A DNA stretch of 5,612 nucleotides from a virus (Duplodnaviria > Heunggongvirae > Uroviricota > Caudoviricetes). Shown here in pieces: positions 1-5,612 of the stretch (its first letter is position 1; every line of letters starts with the position of its first letter). Below the pieces are notes generated by a model that saw only the letters and a list, made by a program, of their open reading frames with translations, ran no database searches and was not told where the DNA came from. The translations under genes were made by a program, and so were the position numbers. The DNA is taken from the IMG/VR virus record IMGVR_UViG_2548876695_000002, positions 1 to 5,612 of that record; one strand, 5' to 3'.

Positions 1-73
1 TTCCATCAGAAACGATGATCTGGCAGCCTGAGTTCACAGATAAAACACTCTCCAGGAAAACCGGGGCGGTTCA
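1..73 (+). mobile_element. Right terminus (IRR) of an IS3-family insertion sequence, IS629-like; element body lies left of the window
   Basis: Plus strand ends ...CCGGGGCGGTTCA at 73. Its reverse complement TGAACCGCCCCGGTTTTCCTGGAGA matches the terminus at 5541 (TGAACCGCCCCGGAAATCCTGGAGA) at 22 of 25 positions, so the two are the paired terminal inverted repeats of one IS type. TGA...TCA termini are typical of the IS3 family. Confidence 0.6.
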
Positions 74-289
74 ATCAGAGTTTGATTCAGTAACGCGTAT
101 GGCAGCTAATTCAACATTATATAAATTAAGAATGTCGAGGATGTTATTTCTCACATACTTTAATTTTTCTGGTGTGTCTAAGGTCGAAGGTATTTTAATA
201 ACATCAACACATTTGAGTGCAGACTCATTAGTGCAATATACAACAAAAGATGTAACTTTGGGCGCCGCTCTAACACCTAGTATTCTCAT
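71..289 (-). pseudogene. N-terminal fragment (72 codons) of an unknown gene, truncated by the IS insertion; the stop codon TGA is the IS terminal triplet
   Basis: ORF begins with ATG at 289 and runs leftward in AT-rich DNA (about 28% GC in 121-180 by hand count). Its stop (plus-strand tca 71-73) is exactly the last three bases of the IS inverted repeat. No recognisable family from the sequence. The antisense ORF 15-308 is an alternative reading I cannot exclude. Confidence 0.35.
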
Positions 290-340
290 TTTTTATATCC
301 TATTTTAGAATCAGGCCGCATCTCTGCGACCATCCATCAT

Positions 341-355
341 CCAAACGTCTCTTCA
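341..355. repeat. 15-bp direct repeat CCAAACGTCTCTTCA, copy 1 (copy 2 at 712-726)
   Basis: Exact 15-mer present at 341-355 and 712-726. Copy 1 lies 2 nt 3' of the 113-aa ORF stop and copy 2 lies between the cI stop and that ORF's RBS. Confidence 0.8.
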
Positions 356-356
356 C

Positions 357-698
357 TCATCCGAAGAAGCAGCAATCCGGGTCAGCACGCACAAGCTCAA
401 GCGCATCAGTCAGCGAAAGTTCAGTACTGTACTGATGCCATTTCATATCCTTCCGCATCCAATAGATTTTCCATCTATCCAGAGAACGTATGTACTTGAT
501 TCTTGCTGATGGCAGGATGTTTGTTTCACCTGGATTGCCCTGCCACACGGGGCGCTGTTCGCCGATATCTATCGTTTGGTCATTGATGCTATAAACAATA
601 TCCAGTTCATTGCGGATATGTTCAGGCGGCCTTATGCTTTCAATGAATTGGTGAACTTCTTTTTTTACTGCTTGATATTCAAGGTCATTGAACGCCAT
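357..698 (-). CDS. Hypothetical 113-aa protein, accessory gene immediately downstream of cI on the same strand (position of lambda rexA/rexB)
   Basis: Intact ORF on the cI strand with a strong SD (minus strand AAGGAGGATAG-ATG) 4 nt upstream of ATG at 698. No signal peptide or transmembrane segment is evident; C-terminus ...DPDCCFFG. Family not recognised by eye. Confidence 0.6.
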   Translation of the reverse strand: MAFNDLEYQAVKKEVHQFIESIRPPEHIRNELDIVYSINDQTIDIGEQRPVWQGNPGETNILPSARIKYIRSLDRWKIYWMRKDMKWHQYSTELSLTDALELVRADPDCCFFG

Positions 699-711
699 CT
701 ATCCTCCTTAC

Positions 712-726
712 CCAAACGTCTCTTCA
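712..726. repeat. 15-bp direct repeat CCAAACGTCTCTTCA, copy 2
   Basis: Identical to 341-355; the two copies bracket the 113-aa ORF. Confidence 0.8.
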
Positions 727-758
727 GGCCACTGGTTACCAGCTATGTGACGATGAAG

Positions 759-1466
759 TCACGAACTTTTCAGCCACTCCCTTGCCTCGATGTCATCCAG
801 ATGGCGAGATTGCTTCAGAATACCAGCTACATACTCCACCTTTGCTACTTGATGATAAGGCAACGTTATAGGCCTGTGATCCTGGTTAATGCTTGTAAAT
901 TGGTATTCTCCATCTCTGTCATAGCCAAGAACCTTAATCATGTTGTGTCCTTCAACGGTTCTGACAAACACCTCATCACCCGGGAATACTTTGGTGTTAG
1001 GCTCAATGAGTACATATTCTCCTGATTTTATTCTGGGCCACATGCTGTCTCCTTTCACACGAAGACCAAAGGCATCTGGATCATCGCTATAAATTTTGAG
1101 CCACCCATCGCGCTCTTCGGTCATCTCGATGGCACCATCAACACCAAGAATTGCCTCACCAACCACGCGCACTAACCCTTTTTTTAATTTGCCAACAAAT
1201 GAAAGAGTATCTTCATCATTCGCTCCATTTAACGAAGTGCCGTGCTGAAGCCAAACAACATCAACGTTTAGAAATTTCGCAAGCGCATTCATTTTTTCCT
1301 GACGCGGTAAAGACTCAGCATTAAACCATTTGCTAACGCCTTTGGACGAAAGAGAAAGGGCACGGGCTATAGCCATTCCCCTACCATGTTCATCAAGACC
1401 AGCTTCTTTACAGGCTTGCGCTAGCCGCTGGGCGAATTCTTTGCGCACTTTTTCATTCTGAACCAT
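759..1466 (-). CDS. cI: Phage CI-type repressor (N-terminal HTH DNA-binding domain, C-terminal LexA-like S24 peptidase domain)
   Basis: 235-aa ORF. N-terminal HTH region (...GRGMAIARALSLSSKGVSKWFN...). C-terminal domain has GDSMWP (catalytic Ser) and a downstream Lys in ...HNMIKVLGY, the Ser-Lys dyad spacing of LexA/CI/UmuD. Transcribed divergently from cro. Confidence 0.9.
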   Translation of the reverse strand: MVQNEKVRKEFAQRLAQACKEAGLDEHGRGMAIARALSLSSKGVSKWFNAESLPRQEKMNALAKFLNVDVVWLQHGTSLNGANDEDTLSFVGKLKKGLVRVVGEAILGVDGAIEMTEERDGWLKIYSDDPDAFGLRVKGDSMWPRIKSGEYVLIEPNTKVFPGDEVFVRTVEGHNMIKVLGYDRDGEYQFTSINQDHRPITLPYHQVAKVEYVAGILKQSRHLDDIEAREWLKSS

Positions 1467-1544
1467 GAGTACGATACTAAAGCACTTGCAAAAACTTTCA
1501 GTTCAACCATAATACGTACTGAAAGTACGAAAAAGGATATTCCT
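1467..1544. promoter_or_regulatory. Divergent immunity control region (OR operators, PR rightward, PRM leftward)
   Basis: 78-bp intergenic region between divergent cI and cro. Rightward sigma70-like promoter TTGCAA (1486-1491), 16-bp spacer, CATAAT (1508-1513). Inverted repeats with GTAC cores: CGTACTgaaAGTACG (1515-1529), AGTACG at 1468-1473, and ACTTTCAGT (1494-1502) paired with ACTGAAAGT (1518-1526). cro SD AAGGA at 1533-1537. Exact operator boundaries are not determinable by eye. Confidence 0.6.
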
Positions 1545-1772
1545 ATGCAAAATCTTGATGAGCCGATTAAAGGTGTCGGCATCCCTGAAGTTGCGAAGGC
1601 TTGTGGAGTTAGCGAAAGGGCTGTCTATAAGTGGCTCAAAAACGGCTTCCTCCCTAAGACTGAGTTTTTTGGGAAAACTAAATACGCATCAAAAATCGAA
1701 GAGATTTCTGGTGGCAAATATCAAGCAAGCGAAATGCTTGAAATAAGCAAAAAGAACCTTCTGGCTGCATAA
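1545..1772 (+). CDS. cro: Cro-like HTH repressor
   Basis: 75-aa ORF divergent from cI, with HTH segment GIPEVAKACGVSERAVYKWLKNG; the position and size fit a cro gene. Not lambda Cro in sequence. Confidence 0.8.
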   Translation: MQNLDEPIKGVGIPEVAKACGVSERAVYKWLKNGFLPKTEFFGKTKYASKIEEISGGKYQASEMLEISKKNLLAA

Positions 1773-1810
1773 GTAACACCGCTATTTTCACAATGGACAT
1801 TCGTCCTACG

Positions 1811-1871
1811 TCGCTGACAAAGCGAGTCCCAATATATCTGACCAACTAAGGCTACATGCGTTTCCACGCAT
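1811..1871 (+). promoter_or_regulatory. Two short hairpins in the cro-cII spacer, candidate nutR boxB-like / tR1 region
   Basis: TCGCT-gacaa-AGCGA (1811-1825) and ATGCGT-ttcc-ACGCAT (1856-1871). This is the location where lambdoid phages carry nutR and tR1. No clear boxA consensus seen, so the functional assignment is tentative. Confidence 0.25.
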
Positions 1872-1910
1872 ACCTTTCAACTAACTATTCACTATTGGAA
1901 ATCTTAAGAA

Positions 1911-2207
1911 ATGGAACAAACAAGTTACAGCAAACTATCCCAGCGTGACGTTGATCGCGCAGAAACAGATTTACTCATCAACCTGTCAACGCTTACCCAG
2001 CGCGGTCTGGCAAAGATGATTGGCTGTCATGAATCGAAGATAAGCAGAACGGACTGGAGATTTATTGCTTCGGTCTTGTGTGCTTTCGGAATGGCATCAG
2101 ACATCAGTCCGATTAGCAGGGCTTTTAAGTATGCGCTTGATGAAATCACAAAGAAAAAATCCCCGGTGGCCGCCGGGGACTCTAAGCAAATTGATATGCA
2201 ATTCTGA
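1911..2207 (+). CDS. cII: CII transcriptional activator
   Basis: 98-aa ORF whose C-terminus ...KKKSPVAAGDSKQIDMQF parallels lambda CII ...KKRPAATERSEQIQMEF as I recall it; same size and position between cro and O. Confidence 0.85.
   Translation: MEQTSYSKLSQRDVDRAETDLLINLSTLTQRGLAKMIGCHESKISRTDWRFIASVLCAFGMASDISPISRAFKYALDEITKKKSPVAAGDSKQIDMQF
1920..1933 (-). promoter_or_regulatory. Candidate CII-binding tetrad repeat of pRE (TTGC-N6-TTGT on minus strand)
   Basis: Minus strand reads TTGC-TGTAAC-TTGT across cII codons 4-8, analogous to the lambda pRE -35 region TTGC-N6-TTGC which also overlaps the start of cII. Confidence 0.35.
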
Positions 2208-2229
2208 GGGAATTACTGGATCAATCCAC
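2151..2229 (-). ncRNA. oop: OOP-like antisense RNA overlapping the 3' end of cII, ending in an intrinsic terminator
   Basis: Minus strand hairpin CCCCGGCGGCCACCGGGG (plus 2161-2178) followed by ATTTTTTCTT. The upstream minus-strand sequence resembles the lambda oop transcript (shared GATCCAGTAAT core). Start inferred about 7 nt downstream of the pO -10. Confidence 0.5.
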
Positions 2230-2236
2230 AGGAGTC

Positions 2237-2265
2237 ATTATGACAAATACAGCAAAAATACTCAA
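2237..2265 (-). promoter_or_regulatory. pO-like promoter for the OOP RNA
   Basis: Minus strand TTGAGT (plus 2260-2265), 17-bp spacer, CATAAT (plus 2237-2242); it lies inside the first codons of O, as in lambda. Confidence 0.45.
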
Positions 2266-3178
2266 CTTCGGCAGAGGTAACTTTGCCGAACAGGAGCGTA
2301 ATGTGGCAGATCTCGATGATGGTTACGCCAGACTATCAAATATGCTGATTGAGGCTTATTCAGGCGCAGATCTGACCAAGCGACAGTTTAAAGTGCTGCT
2401 TGCCATTCTGCGTAAAACCTATGGGTGGAATAAACCAATGGACAGAATCACCGATTCTCAACTTAGCGAGATTACAAAGTTACCTGTCAAACGGTGCAAT
2501 GAAGCCAAGTTAGAACTCGTCAGAATGAATATTATCAAGCAGCAAGGCGGCATGTTTGGACCAAATAAAAACATCTCAGAATGGTGCATCCCTCAAAACG
2601 AGGGAGGTTCCCCTAAAATGAGGGACATCCCTCAAAACGAGGGAAAATCCCCTAAAACGAGGGATAAAACATCCCTCAAATTAGGGGATTGCTATCCCTC
2701 AAAACAGGGGGACACAAAAGACACTATTACAAAAGAAAAAAGAAAAGATTATTCGTCCGAGAATTCTGGCGAATCCTCTGACCAGCCAGAAAACGATCTT
2801 TCTGTGGTTAAACCGGATGCTGCAATTCAGAGCGGCAGCAAGTGGGGAACAGCAGAAGACCTGACCGCCGCAGAGTGGATGTTTGACATGGTGAAGACTA
2901 TCGCGCCATCAGCCAGAAAACCGAATTTTGCTGGGTGGGCTAACGATATCCGCCTGATGCGTGAACGTGACGGACGTAACCACCGCGATATGTGTGTGCT
3001 TTTCCGCTGGGCCTGCCAGGACAACTTCTGGTCCGGTAACGTGCTGAGTCCGGCCAAACTCCGCGACAAGTGGACCCAGCTCGAAATCAACCGTAACAAG
3101 CAACAGGCAGGCGTGACAGCCAGCAAACCAAAACTCGACCTGACAAACACTGACTGGATTTACGGGGTGGATTTATGA
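2240..3178 (+). CDS. O: Replication initiator protein O (origin-binding), lambda-like, with a 13-aa insertion encoded by two extra iterons
   Basis: 312-aa ORF with N-terminus MTNTAKILNFGRGNFAEQERNVADLDDGYARLSNML... and C-terminus ...TNTDWIYGVDL matching lambda O as I recall it (lambda O is 299 aa). SD AGGAG at 2230-2234. The extra 13 residues (roughly GSPKMRDIPQNEG) fall in the iteron-encoded linker. Confidence 0.95.
   Translation: MTNTAKILNFGRGNFAEQERNVADLDDGYARLSNMLIEAYSGADLTKRQFKVLLAILRKTYGWNKPMDRITDSQLSEITKLPVKRCNEAKLELVRMNIIKQQGGMFGPNKNISEWCIPQNEGGSPKMRDIPQNEGKSPKTRDKTSLKLGDCYPSKQGDTKDTITKEKRKDYSSENSGESSDQPENDLSVVKPDAAIQSGSKWGTAEDLTAAEWMFDMVKTIAPSARKPNFAGWANDIRLMRERDGRNHRDMCVLFRWACQDNFWSGNVLSPAKLRDKWTQLEINRNKQQAGVTASKPKLDLTNTDWIYGVDL
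2589..2712 (+). repeat. Origin of replication iterons (six O-binding repeats) inside the O gene, followed by an AT-rich unwinding region (2713-2760)
   Basis: Six ~17-18 bp inverted-repeat iterons: TCCCTCAAAACGAGGGA (2589-2605), TCCCCTAAAATGAGGGA (2609-2625), TCCCTCAAAACGAGGGA (2628-2644), TCCCCTAAAACGAGGGA (2648-2664), TCCCTCAAATTAGGGGA (2672-2688), TCCCTCAAAACAGGGGGA (2695-2712). Followed by ACAAAAGACACTATTACAAAAGAAAAAAGAAAAGATTATT. Confidence 0.9.
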
Positions 3179-3876
3179 AAAACATCGCCGCACAGATGGT
3201 TAACTTTGACCGTGAGCAGATGCGTCGAATCGCCAACAACATGCCGGAACAGTACGACGAAAAGCCGCAGGTACAACAGGTAGCGCAGATCATCAACGGT
3301 GTGTTCAGCCAGTTACTGGCAACTTTCCCGGCGAGTCTGGCTAACCGGGACCAGAACGAACTGAATGAAATCCGCCGCCAGTGGGTTCTGGCTTTCCGGG
3401 AAAACGGGATCACCACAATGGAACAGGTTAACGCAGGAATGCGCGTAGCCCGTCGGCAGAATCGACCATTTCTGCCATCACCCGGGCAGTTTGTTGCATG
3501 GTGCCGGGAAGAAGCATCCGTTATCGCCGGACTGCCAAACGTCAGCGAGCTGGTTGATATGGTTTACGAGTATTGCCGGAAGCGAGGCCTGTATCCGGAT
3601 GCGGAGTCTTATCCGTGGAAATCAAACGCGCACTACTGGCTGGTTACCAACCTGTATCAGAACATGCGGGCCAATGCGCTTACTGATGCGGAATTACGCC
3701 GTAAGGCCGCAGATGAGCTTGTCCATATGACTGCGAGAATTAACCGTGGTGAGGCGATCCCTGAACCAGTAAAACAACTTCCTGTCATGGGCGGCAGACC
3801 TCTAAATCGTGCACAGGCTCTGGCGAAGATCGCAGAAATTAAAGCTAAGTTCGGACTGAAAGGAGCAAGAGTATGA
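3175..3876 (+). CDS. P: Replication protein P (DnaB helicase loader), lambda-like
   Basis: 233-aa ORF MKNIAAQMVNFDREQMRRIANNMPEQYDEKPQ... matching lambda P in length and sequence as recalled. ATGA overlap with the O stop at 3175-3178. Confidence 0.95.
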   Translation: MKNIAAQMVNFDREQMRRIANNMPEQYDEKPQVQQVAQIINGVFSQLLATFPASLANRDQNELNEIRRQWVLAFRENGITTMEQVNAGMRVARRQNRPFLPSPGQFVAWCREEASVIAGLPNVSELVDMVYEYCRKRGLYPDAESYPWKSNAHYWLVTNLYQNMRANALTDAELRRKAADELVHMTARINRGEAIPEPVKQLPVMGGRPLNRAQALAKIAEIKAKFGLKGARV

Positions 3877-4163
3877 CGGGCAAAGAGGCAATTATTCATT
3901 ACCTCGGGACGCATAAGAACTTCTGTGCACAGGACGTTTCCGCGGTAACAGGCGCAACCGTAACCAGCATAAATCAGGCTGCGGCTAAAATGGCGCGGGC
4001 AGGAATCCTGATCATTGATGGTAAGGTCTGGCGAACGGTGTATTACCGGTTTGCTACCAGGGAAGAACGGGAAGGAACGGTGAGCACGAACCTGATTTTT
4101 AAGGAGTGTCGCCAGAGTGCAGCGATGAAACGGGTATTGGCGGTATATGGAGTTAAAAGATGA
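3873..4163 (+). CDS. ren: Ren protein (Rex exclusion resistance), lambda-like
   Basis: 96-aa ORF MTGKEAIIHYLGTH...KRVLAVYGVKR, same length and closely similar to lambda Ren as recalled. ATGA overlap with the P stop. Confidence 0.9.
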   Translation: MTGKEAIIHYLGTHKNFCAQDVSAVTGATVTSINQAAAKMARAGILIIDGKVWRTVYYRFATREEREGTVSTNLIFKECRQSAAMKRVLAVYGVKR

Positions 4164-4188
4164 CCATCTACATCACTGAGCTAATGAC

Positions 4189-4220
4189 AGGCCTGCTGGT
4201 AATCGCAGGCCTTTTTATTT
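4189..4220 (+). terminator. Intrinsic terminator, tR2-like
   Basis: 8-bp stem AGGCCTGC (4189-4196) / GCAGGCCT (4205-4212) with loop TGGTAATC, followed by TTTTATTT (4213-4220). Confidence 0.7.
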
Positions 4221-4233
4221 GGGGGAGAGGGAA

Positions 4234-4512
4234 GTGAACGATAGCTACCGACAGTTTGAAAACTGGTGGTCAAAAGACAAAAGCCAGTTCACGGGAGACG
4301 ATGAATTAAAAGAGTTTGCCTGGGTGATATGGCAGGCATCGCGCTCTGCTATTGAACTGGATATCGACTGGCCCGAATCGAATGACGACCTTTGGAAAGA
4401 TGGTGAAGAAGGTGCTTATGCGATGGGTTATGAGGATGGGCGTGACAAAACGGTAATTGCAGTAATGAAAGCCATCAGGGCCGCAGGAATCAAAGAAAAG
4501 AATTTCGATTAA
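4234..4512 (+). CDS. Hypothetical small acidic protein (about 93 aa); start codon uncertain (GTG 4234 preferred over TTG 4219)
   Basis: ORF ...NDSYRQFENWWSKDKSQFTGDDELKEFAWVIWQ...IRAAGIKEKNFD. GGAG at 4224-4227 lies 6 nt before GTG 4234. The TTG at 4219 offered by the ORF track sits inside the terminator T-run and is unlikely. Inserted relative to lambda, where ninB follows tR2 directly. Confidence 0.5.
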   Translation: MNDSYRQFENWWSKDKSQFTGDDELKEFAWVIWQASRSAIELDIDWPESNDDLWKDGEEGAYAMGYEDGRDKTVIAVMKAIRAAGIKEKNFD

Positions 4513-4644
4513 GCAAATATCACTTCAATAAATCGCTTTTAAGGCATCACAATCGCTCTGTGGTGAGGTAAGCACGTGCAAGGCATGCCGATAAGCAGCG
4601 AGAATGAAAAATGCGTCAGAATGCGTTTGAGGAGGTTTTAAGAA

Positions 4645-4860
4645 ATGAGTACGATAGCTGAGCTTGTCAGGGCTAATTTTCGTGAAGAGTTGGTGCGTTG
4701 GTATCGGTATCGTTCATCGTCCAGTTTGCCGCTTGATGAGTTGTATGAGCATTCACCTGCCGCACGACGCTATCCGCGTGACCGTGTTCTTCGACGGTTG
4801 TTCAAACTCAACAATGAGTTTCAGCGCAACAGAATTATCCGGAGTCTGGATTTTAAGTGA
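4645..4860 (+). CDS. Hypothetical 71-aa basic protein
   Basis: Strong SD GAGGAGG (4630-4636) 8 nt upstream of ATG 4645. Arg-rich sequence; family not recognised. Confidence 0.6.
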   Translation: MSTIAELVRANFREELVRWYRYRSSSSLPLDELYEHSPAARRYPRDRVLRRLFKLNNEFQRNRIIRSLDFK

Positions 4861-4870
4861 AGGAGTGAGC

Positions 4871-5041
4871 ATGAGCGACCTATCATTAACCCAGCCAAAG
4901 CTAAAAGAATGTCCGTTTTGCGGCGGTAATGCTCGTCTGTGGGTTGAGGCCGGAATAAATATTGATGTGTGGGGCTATGCAGAATGTGACCTCTGTGAAG
5001 CCAGGGGGGGCATGGGCACCATCAGTTGCTGCGGCGGCTGA
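4871..5041 (+). CDS. Lar-family-like zinc-ribbon protein (restriction alleviation), apparently frameshifted at a G7 tract
   Basis: SD AAGGAG (4860-4865) 5 nt before ATG 4871. CPFCGG-x20-CDLC four-cysteine zinc-ribbon pattern. The frame ends ...GGMGTISCCGG* at 5041, but the other forward frame (codons on 5010, 5013, ...) continues AWAPSVAAAAEKWNRRAGDEANLSASQRSNQK* to 5108 and carries the A-x-x-WNRR motif I associate with Lar-family C-termini. One fewer G in the run 5004-5010 would fuse the two. Confidence 0.5.
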   Translation: MSDLSLTQPKLKECPFCGGNARLWVEAGINIDVWGYAECDLCEARGGMGTISCCGG

Positions 5042-5064
5042 AAAATGGAACCGGAGAGCAGGAG

Positions 5065-5511
5065 ATGAAGCAAACCTTTCTGCTTCGCAACGAAGCAATC
5101 AGAAATAACGCCATAGACGCCATTCTCTCACTACCCATCGACGACAAGTCACCCCACGAAGTCCACGTTAAAGAACCCAAGCGCAGCAAAGCGCAGAATG
5201 ACCGCATGTGGCCGATGCTGAACGATGTTTCGCGTCAGGTGCTATGGCATGGTCAACGGCTGGCGCCGGAAGACTGGAAAGACCTGTTCACTGCCCTGTG
5301 GCTTAAGACCAAAAAACTGGAGCAACGAAGTGTGCCTGGTATCGACGGTGGCGTTGTCATGCTTGGCGTGCGTACCAGCAAAATGCGGAAGGCCAGCATG
5401 ACTGAGCTTATCGAAATCATGTTCTGGTTCGGCTCAGAGCGCAACGTGCGGTGGAGTGATGACTCCTGGCGAGAGTATGAATGGTCACAACGAAAAGGGA
5501 GAGCTGCATGA
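5065..5511 (+). CDS. ninB: NinB (Orf-family recombination protein)
   Basis: 148 aa starting MKQTFLLRNEA... (lambda NinB MKKLTFEIRSP...), with conserved ...DQNRKLW / NDRMWP..., GDVSRQV / NDVSRQV and C-terminal ...EWKARWGDRAA versus ...EWSQRKGRAA. The upstream ATG at 5026 in the ORF track lacks support. GGAG at 5053-5056. Confidence 0.9.
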   Translation: MKQTFLLRNEAIRNNAIDAILSLPIDDKSPHEVHVKEPKRSKAQNDRMWPMLNDVSRQVLWHGQRLAPEDWKDLFTALWLKTKKLEQRSVPGIDGGVVMLGVRTSKMRKASMTELIEIMFWFGSERNVRWSDDSWREYEWSQRKGRAA

Positions 5512-5543
5512 CTATCAAATCAAATACGCCATCACACGACTGA
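5508..5543 (+). pseudogene. First 11 codons of the gene translationally coupled to ninB (ATGA overlap), truncated by the IS insertion
   Basis: ATG 5508 overlaps the ninB stop TGA 5509-5511, the arrangement at the lambda ninB/ninC junction. The reading frame MTIKSNTPSHD terminates at TGA 5541-5543, which is the first triplet of the IS inverted repeat. Confidence 0.4.
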
Positions 5544-5612
5544 ACCGCCCCGGAAATCCTGGAGACTAAACTCCCTGAGAAAGAGGTAAACAGGATGACT
5601 AAAAATACTCGT
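5541..5612 (+). mobile_element. Left terminus (IRL) and 5' end of an IS3-family insertion sequence, IS629-like; element continues beyond the window
   Basis: TGAACCGCCCCGGAAATCCTGGAGACTAAACTCCCTGAGAAAGAGGTAAACAGG-ATG-ACTAAAAATACTCGT matches the IS629 left end and OrfA start MTKNTR as I recall them. Inverted-repeat match to the sequence at 49-73. Confidence 0.75.
5596..5612 (+). CDS. IS3-family transposase OrfA, 5' partial (first 5 codons in window)
   Basis: ATG at 5596 preceded by AAAGAGG. MTKNTR is the remembered N-terminus of IS629/IS1203 OrfA. Only 17 nt fall in the window. Confidence 0.6.

Follow-up and report, generated by a model that had tools for sequence, protein, structure and literature searches.

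IS629-group elements are amplified in the major STEC, whose prophages they reshape (PMC9397093, PMC10810198), and the position of an IS can change the behaviour of the phage (PMC10810198). The closest described counterparts of the locus reported herein are the IS629/IS1203v insertions in the Stx prophages of O157:H7 (Stx2a_F422 with accession AP012531, F7349, and phages PA2 and PA8), in which elements of the same group, with the same length of 1310 bp, the same inverted repeats (IRs) and an orfA/orfB frameshift, have likewise entered the 933W-like early region. Two directly oriented copies are also observed in F7349, there bracketing N through roi. In contrast, the insertions in the O45:H2 prophage occupy other sites, the prophage is of the Stx1a type, and the isoforms are different, being 95.4% and 95.8% identical to the IS629 of O157, for which the element annotated in GenBank phage record AP012531, rather than the ISfinder reference, was the comparison sequence. 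Both copies thus exceed 90% identity to this annotated IS629. Deletions promoted by IEE or transposase and adjoining IS3-family elements have also been described (Kusumoto et al. 2011, as reviewed in 10.1101/2023.06.07.543989 and PMC9397093); no such deletion is present in the genome matching the DNA analysed here (strain 2011C-4251).

Two other known systems resemble the locus in layout. Compound transposons such as Tn10 and Tn6330 show the same IS-passenger-IS arrangement; however, the duplications observed in the present study mark two insertions into a resident segment, with no sign of movement of the unit. Autonomous lambda dv plasmids made of the immunity-replication region are established, and the same functional set, pR-cro-cII-O(ori)-P with cI, is bracketed here; however, no autonomous form was found in PLSDB, and excision would need recombination between IS copies that are 95% identical.

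The bracketed module of an O45:H2 Stx1a prophage

The window, i.e. the whole stretch of 5,612 nucleotides of viral DNA analysed in the present study, is exactly matched over its full length by E. coli O45:H2 strain 2011C-4251 (NZ_CP027388.1, positions 6001-11612 of locus L001), and represents the part of a 933W-like Stx1a prophage that governs immunity and replication. The host lineage of this prophage is clinical and bovine STEC O45:H2; according to PMC7285328, strains SJ7, FWSEC0003 and 2011C-4251 are clinical O45:H2. Window positions 74-5540 align with 933W and Stx1a phages as one collinear piece at 98.3-98.7% identity (98.3% for 933W, single-piece alignment). The lambdoid immunity-replication character is seen in the divergent cI and cro around oR, cII, O with iterons, and P, and the gene content that the earlier note on this DNA had placed between the IS copies (cI, cro, cII, O, P, ren and ninB) was confirmed using Pfam, PHROGs and the 933W annotation; the 933W-type module runs cI-cro-cII-O(ori)-P-ren-lar-ninB. 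The features of the window are as follows.

1-73, plus strand: 3' end of the left IS (left-type isoform, IS629/IS1203 group), identical to L001 6001-6073; orfB stop at 29-31 and IRR at 49-73 (IR pattern match; complete element at L001 4764-6073)
71-289, minus strand: first 72 codons of 933W L0083 (153-aa gene; PHROG 3875, 'RuvC-like'), cut by the left IS, with the stop codon from the IS end
74-76, no strand: ATC, right-hand copy of the 3-bp target-site duplication (TSD) of the left IS (L001 ...GATTATC[IS]ATCAGAG...)
357-698, minus strand: DUF3024 gene (933W L0084) of the pRM operon, downstream of cI (Pfam PF11225, E=2e-31; 933W annotation)
759-1466, minus strand: cI repressor, LexA-like self-cleaving type (HTH_3 and Peptidase_S24; Pfam, 933W annotation)
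1459-1529, no strand: predicted oR3-oR2-oR1 with pRM and pR, transferred from 933W (L004 5386-5456, offset 3927) through the collinear alignment
1545-1772, plus strand: cro (HTH families including P22_Cro; 933W annotation)
1911-2207, plus strand: cII (Pfam Phage_CII, E=5e-31)
2240-3178, plus strand: O, replication initiator (Pfam Phage_rep_O, E=1e-35)
2588-2710, plus strand: ori inside O, six ATCCCTCAAAACGAGGG-like iterons (repeat family; six 'ori iteron' features listed in 933W)
3175-3876, plus strand: P, replication protein (Pfam Phage_lambda_P, E=5e-62)
3873-4163, plus strand: ren (PHROG 142 'Ren-like exclusion protein', E=1e-40; 933W ren)
4234-4512, plus strand: hypothetical gene, 933W L0091 (PHROG 343, function not assigned in PHROGs)
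4645-4860, plus strand: DUF7301 gene (Pfam PF23975, E=4e-26)
4871-5108, plus strand: lar (restriction alleviation), frameshifted (PGAP 'frameshifted'; alignment; Pfam Lar_restr_allev on the N-terminal part)
5065-5511, plus strand: ninB (Pfam NinB, E=9e-49)
5508-5543, plus strand: first 11 codons of a Dam-family N6-adenine methyltransferase gene (933W L0094, nin region), cut by the right IS (read from the sequence)
5537-5540, no strand: CGAC, left-hand copy of the 4-bp TSD of the right IS (L001 ...CACACGAC[IS]CGACAAGG...)
5541-5612, plus strand: 5' end of the right IS (right-type isoform, IS629/IS1203 group), identical to L001 11541-11612; IRL at 5541-5565 and orfA start at 5595 (complete element at L001 11541-12850)

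The earlier suggestion of a degraded prophage holds in a mild sense: the insertions split two accessory genes and lar carries a frameshift at a run of seven G (5004-5010; six G in relatives by alignment), whereas N, cI, cro, cII, O, P and Q are intact in 2011C-4251. A truncation of N in the PGAP annotation was rejected, as L001 has an uninterrupted N frame of 127 codons. The prophage would be expected to be impaired in accessory functions only. The left IS would uncouple stk and the next gene from pRM, and N-modified polymerase would read through the right IS, so that Q and stx1 should still be reachable; a sequence scan of the plus strand of the right IS revealed no terminator-like site. The insertions may also alter the replication and induction of the Stx1a prophage, and hence the amount of toxin and the ease with which stx1 spreads.

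Two complete IS copies and their target sites

The pattern TGAACCGCCCCGGNNNTCCTGGAGA matched the window twice, at 49-73 (minus strand) and 5541-5565 (plus strand), compared with an expectation of 0 in 200 shuffles, and a repeat search revealed the same inverted pair, with arms agreeing at 22/25 bases, so that both searches bear out the matching IS3-family termini noted previously. These are ends of two elements of the IS629/IS1203 group (IS3 family), the IRR of one at 49-73 and the IRL of the other at 5541-5565. Extension into the flanks in 2011C-4251 showed, as had been proposed, two full copies in direct orientation around the module, each complete, 1310 bp long and on the plus strand (L001 4764-6073 and 11541-12850). 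In both copies the imperfect 25-bp IRs read TGAACCGCCCCGG...TCCTGGAGA and the ends are 5'-TG...CA-3', and both orfA (108 aa; HTH_Tnp_1 match) and orfB (295 aa; rve, HTH_21 and rve_3 matches) are intact. Elements of this group have two consecutive frames linked by a programmed -1 frameshift, and a 'programmed frameshift' and an AL1L pseudoknot are predicted for the transposase at the level of the PGAP annotation. Thus, the copies belong to the IS629/IS1203 group of the IS3 family, with which the size, IRs, two frames and TSD length all fit. Under the ISfinder rule, an isoform shares more than 90% nucleotide identity with the named element. The two copies are 94.9% identical to each other, with 67 mismatches and no indels, and are different isoforms; the earlier description of a single element type is therefore roughly right for the group but not at the level of the isoform.

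Each IS disrupts a gene, consistent with the earlier note. Window positions 74-289, next to the left IS, correspond to 933W L004 4001-4216 within the L0083 coding sequence (3755-4216), and the full-length L0083 protein matches PHROG 3875 with E=8e-91. The remainder of the methyltransferase gene lies beyond the right IS at L001 12851-13349 (Pfam Dam, E=8e-63). The methyltransferase reported in PMC10810198 was rejected as the same gene, being gp5, of the MT-A70 family and located elsewhere in the prophage, and is a parallel only. It is also true that each terminus donates the stop codon of a truncated reading frame: the minus-strand frame 71-289 ends on the TGA made by the last three bases of the left IS (71-73), and the plus-strand frame 5508-5543 on the TGA that opens the IRL of the right IS (5541-5543). 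These stops carry no meaning, because every IS629 end reads 5'-TGA, which falls in frame in one case out of three.

The check for TSDs that the earlier note had called for revealed one at each IS, ATC on the left and CGAC on the right; each sequence is present as a single copy in the uninterrupted phages 933W, Stx1a_NIID112183, F422 and F7349. The TSDs of this IS type at the locus are 3-4 bp long, including the ATT of a third copy in strain SJ7. A separate duplication at each IS, together with collinearity with uninterrupted Stx phages, indicates two independent simple insertions, and the bracketed unit is neither a compound transposon nor rearranged. Among 5426 complete E. coli genomes, 7 contain the left junction and 6 the right junction, without exception at this one prophage site. 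Herein, we propose that the arrangement very probably results from two separate IS insertions into the early region of a 933W-like O45:H2 Stx1a prophage. Two members of the IS629/IS1203 group, presumably moving by the copy-out-paste-in route of the IS3 family, would have inserted in two separate events, and their common orientation may be due to chance. The left element entered the RuvC-like gene in the pRM operon, downstream of cI and between cI-DUF3024 and the stk kinase gene, and the right element a site 11 codons into the Dam-family methyltransferase gene, after ninB in the pR delayed-early operon.

Bracketing by two complete, separately arrived insertion sequences is an ordinary state in such pathogens, and existing knowledge of IS elements and lambdoid phages is unchanged by the biology seen here, which was already known. 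No account of this IS configuration in O45:H2 was found in the literature searched, and insertion sequences are not mentioned at all in the comparative genomics of O45:H2 (PMC7285328). The practical value is small: both insertions, and likewise their derived variants, mark the STEC O45:H2 lineage.

Alternative explanations for the arrangement

Two intact, directly oriented IS copies around a passenger segment, with the outer ends (left IRL and right IRR) pointing outward as a transposon needs, would suit a compound transposon that brought the module into the prophage or can carry it out. However, each IS has its own duplication and the outer flanks differ (ATC vs CGAC), with no single duplication around the whole unit; moreover, the segment occupies the same position as in uninterrupted phages, and the unit is found in only one genomic context, a single prophage site in 6 genomes, and in 0 plasmids. 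We consider this explanation extremely unlikely. The same duplications bear on the earlier proposal of a rearranged prophage, in which the arrangement arose when IS copies recombined homologously or were rearranged in some other way. IS629-group copies are plentiful in 2011C-4251, with matches at about 29 places, and STEC are known to undergo rearrangements between them; however, exchange between copies separates the halves of a TSD, whereas both duplications are intact here, and the gene order and spacing equal those of 933W. This origin was not borne out and is very improbable. Even less credence, close to none, is due to the idea that the IS fragments at the two ends are artefacts of assembly or of contig ends and that the copies are not both real: like a short-read contig, the window breaks off inside repeats, after 73 and 72 bases, but both full copies are found at these same positions in six complete genomes that were assembled independently, and a seventh has the left copy.

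Deletion or circularisation of the segment through its flanking copies, also raised previously, concerns its fate rather than its origin. In the functional version of this idea, IS recombination would free a lambda-dv-like plasmid (cI-cro-cII-O-ori-P with one IS) and leave a locked-in stx1 prophage. A complete lambdoid replicon lies between the copies, consisting of pR, cro, cII, O with its six iterons, and P, and the longest perfect stretches common to the copies are 175 and 145 bp. RecA could in principle act on such a pair to delete or circularise the segment; to that extent the earlier claim stands. Despite this, no product was found. Using a query that fused the 1500 bp preceding the left IS to the 1500 bp following the right IS, with both halves required within 2 kb, the deletion was detected in 0/5426 complete E. 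coli genomes, and none of 72,556 PLSDB plasmids contained window positions 74-5540 as an IS-joined circle. Divergence of 5%, as observed between the copies, lowers RecA recombination, and cI carried on a circle would be expected to repress the pR-dependent activation of ori unless the Cro state were adopted. Two small lambdoid circles from one dog strain are present in PLSDB, but they lack any IS and are probably assembly artefacts, since both end at the homologous ninB position. An excisable functional unit is accordingly rated as very unlikely. Mobilisation of the module, either as a compound transposon of 8.1 kb that moves by its outer IRL and IRR or as an IS-recombined lambda-dv-like circle, is scarcely probable; if true, phage immunity and a replicon could spread without the phage, and a locked-in stx1 prophage would be left behind. 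The earlier interpretation is partly supported, and two separate IS insertions into a resident early region are the preferred explanation.

Continued IS activity in sister strains

The locus is still changing through continued IS activity in the lineage, and real degradation occurs in sister strains via IS events other than exchange between the left and right copies. In SJ7 and 99E2750, a third IS is located in cII at window 2114/2115 (TSD ATT in SJ7) and is 100% identical to the left IS; this identical extra copy suggests recent movement of the left-type IS. In strain 2000-3039, another IS-associated deletion has removed O through ninB plus the right IS, a loss of 4645 bp as read by comparison with sister strains, the polarity of which depends on the whole-genome phylogeny. 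The deletion spans everything between the end of cII and the outer edge of the right IS, with its left deletion/IS junction at window 2205/2206. As described for IS629 in deletions promoted by IEE or transposase, it starts exactly at an IS end and that IS is retained; it differs from them in stopping, on its other side, at the outer boundary of a second IS629-type copy, where 14 terminal bases form a direct repeat. With O and P gone, the stx1 prophage of 2000-3039 should be replication-dead.

Two independent IS insertions at the ends of the segment

The 25-base pattern TGAACCGCCCCGGNNNTCCTGGAGA matched the window twice, at 49-73 (minus strand) and 5541-5565 (plus strand), with 0 matches expected from 200 shuffles, and the same pair was also recovered by a repeat search of the window. 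The earlier note took these matches for the termini of full IS copies in direct orientation, and this reading was borne out in the chromosome of E. coli O45:H2 2011C-4251 (NZ_CP027388.1; region L001), which contains the whole window as an exact substring (L001 6001-11612) and carries both elements on the plus strand:

L001 4764-6073, + strand: left IS, complete IS3-family element, 1310 bp
L001 11541-12850, + strand: right IS, complete IS3-family element, 1310 bp

Intact orfA (HTH_Tnp_1) and orfB (rve) were observed in both copies, PGAP annotates the programmed frameshift and the AL1L pseudoknot, and both elements show all those defining features of the IS3 family and the IS629 group that could be tested. 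The copies share 94.9% identity, with 67 mismatches over 1310 positions and no indels, and their identities to the annotated IS629 of the O157 phage Stx2a_F422 are 95.4% and 95.8%. Matches of at least 99% identity were observed in 617 E. coli records for the left type and 83 for the right type. Judged from their sequences, the elements represent two different isoforms within the widespread IS629/IS1203 group, and not copies of one and the same sequence.

The left IS has ATC on either side and the right IS has CGAC on either side, and a single ATC and a single CGAC occur at the corresponding points in 933W, Stx1a_NIID112183, Stx2a_F422 and the F7349 prophage, all of which are uninterrupted here. 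With a separate duplication at each IS and unlike outer flanks, the IS-segment-IS unit does not have the properties of a compound transposon; insertion as such is ruled out because the outer flanks mismatch, and a later exchange between the two copies is ruled out because it would separate the duplications. On this evidence, the left and right IS are two independent insertions. The paired IS around the module are real but ordinary: both insertions are already annotated in a public genome, and it is well established that IS629-group elements insert into the early region of Stx prophages. The Stx2a_F422 phage has one such copy, adjoining N. The Stx2 prophage of O157:H7 F7349 independently carries a pair of IS1203/IS629 copies in direct orientation (L006 1-66 and 10447-11756, NZ_CP038363.1), on either side of a larger early region that extends from N to roi and includes the same immunity-replication module.

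As the earlier note described, the stop codon of each truncated frame is a TGA donated by the IS, at 71-73 (minus strand) and 5541-5543 (plus strand); because all ends of this IS read 5'-TGA, such a stop arises one time in three without further meaning. In addition, an open frame that begins at an ATG inside the IRR-proximal IS end (MIWQPEFTDKTLSRK..., MIWQPEF...) reads outward from the element. At the right IS, it continues in phase into the Dam-family methyltransferase and substitutes for the first 11 residues of that protein; the hybrid is what PGAP calls as the gene (L001 12792-13349). Window 15-308 contains this outward frame as well.

Gene content and expected effects on transcription

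Window 74-5540 aligns as a single collinear piece with phage 933W (98.3% identity) and with Stx1a phages (98.6-98.7%), and forms a complete lambdoid replicon. Genes were assigned from Pfam, PHROGs and the 933W annotation:

minus strand: truncated L0083 (PHROG 3875, RuvC-like)
minus strand: DUF3024 gene
minus strand: cI (HTH and Peptidase_S24)
+ strand: cro, cII
+ strand: O, with six iterons at 2588-2710
+ strand: P, ren, hypothetical gene, DUF7301 gene
+ strand: lar, ninB
right end of segment: Dam-family methyltransferase, first 11 codons only

To the left, the prophage continues with stk, N, cIII, kil, gam, bet and exo, and to the right with the methyltransferase remainder, nin genes, Q and stxA1a/stxB1a. 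SJ7, FWSEC0003 and 2011C-4251 are clinical STEC O45:H2 (PMC7285328). The prophage of the window's own genome is only lightly damaged: the N, cI, cro, cII, O and P frames are intact in 2011C-4251, and Q is intact by annotation.

In the 933W annotation, cI, L0084, L0083, stk and L0081 sit between pRM and the terminator tM; given this order, L0083 is destroyed by the left IS, which probably also uncouples stk from pRM. Within the pR delayed-early operon, the right IS separates ninB from the methyltransferase and points in the direction of pR transcription. The search of this IS for terminator-like sites gave none on the plus strand, and N-modified polymerase probably reads through it to Q. Stx phage induction is altered by IS position (PMC10810198). 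The two insertions have modest value as lineage markers and are a possible modifier of Stx1a phage fitness.

Several minor features were also observed. At L001 2436-2819, PGAP gives just a 69-nt 'incomplete' antitermination gene; the apparent truncation of N is an annotation artefact, since the full 127-codon frame is intact, with one residue different from 933W N. A lar frameshift at window 5004-5010 (a seven-G run, against six G in 933W-type relatives) is flagged in two independent assemblies (L001 and L002, the latter from SJ7) and reflects either a genuine slippage mutation or a homopolymer sequencing error common to both. At window 341-355 and 712-726, the 15-nt sequence CCAAACGTCTCTTCA is repeated exactly in direct orientation, once in each of the minus-strand gaps between genes of the cI operon (cI/DUF3024 gene and DUF3024 gene/L0083).

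Deletion in the O45:H2 lineage

Direct repeats are able to recombine, leading to deletion or circularisation of the intervening DNA, and this possibility was raised in the earlier note. The substrate is imperfect (5% divergence; longest perfect runs 175 and 145 bp). When the two outer flanks were joined as a query, none of 5426 complete E. coli genomes had them within 2 kb, and no IS-joined circle was found with the segment as query among 72,556 plasmids. Deletion or circularisation between the two copies is thus possible but unobserved. Two 'circular plasmids' from a single dog E. coli strain, L007 (CP148561.1, 8232 bp) and L008 (CP148562.1, 7007 bp), are purely lambdoid immunity-replication regions; L007 has 98.8% identity to most of the segment, with about 72 bp of the iteron region missing. 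Each record stops at the homologous ninB position, which suggests assembly artefacts and not lambda-dv-like plasmids.

Seven genomes have the left junction and six have the right one. Three structural states were observed among those with the left junction:

two IS, as in the window: 2011C-4251, UTAK-2, UTAK-4, FWSEC0003
three IS: SJ7, 99E2750
deletion: 2000-3039
L002 8115-9424 (NZ_CP044315.1), inverted: third IS in SJ7
L009 12283-13592 (NZ_CP101302.1), inverted: left-type IS in 2000-3039, in place of window 2206-5540 and the right IS

Degradation of the module by IS elements, as the earlier note envisaged, was found in the sister strain 2000-3039, by a route other than the one proposed. Its prophage matches L001 at 100% as far as window 2205, where the inverted IS begins, and the IRL end of this IS adjoins CGACAAGG..., precisely the point at which the right IS ends, on its outer side, in the other strains. 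Compared with the right IS's IRR end, this IRL end is the same at 22 of 25 bases, with the terminal 14 identical, and the two make a short direct repeat because IS ends are inverted repeats. The most economical history is an insertion at the cII end followed by a deletion between these two ends; slippage could account for this deletion, as could the transposase- and IEE-promoted deletion described for IS629 (10.1101/2023.06.07.543989; PMC9397093). Less economical alternatives are that the same CGAC site received an IS independently and the adjoining DNA was then deleted, or that two inverted IS copies recombined. Whichever the route, O, P, ren, lar and ninB (window 2206-5540) and the right IS are absent, 4645 bp in total, and the stx1a prophage of 2000-3039 should be unable to replicate.

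The third IS of SJ7 and 99E2750 is inverted in cII at window 2114/2115, with the duplication ATT, and is 100% identical to the left IS; these two copies form identical inverted repeats around cI-cro.
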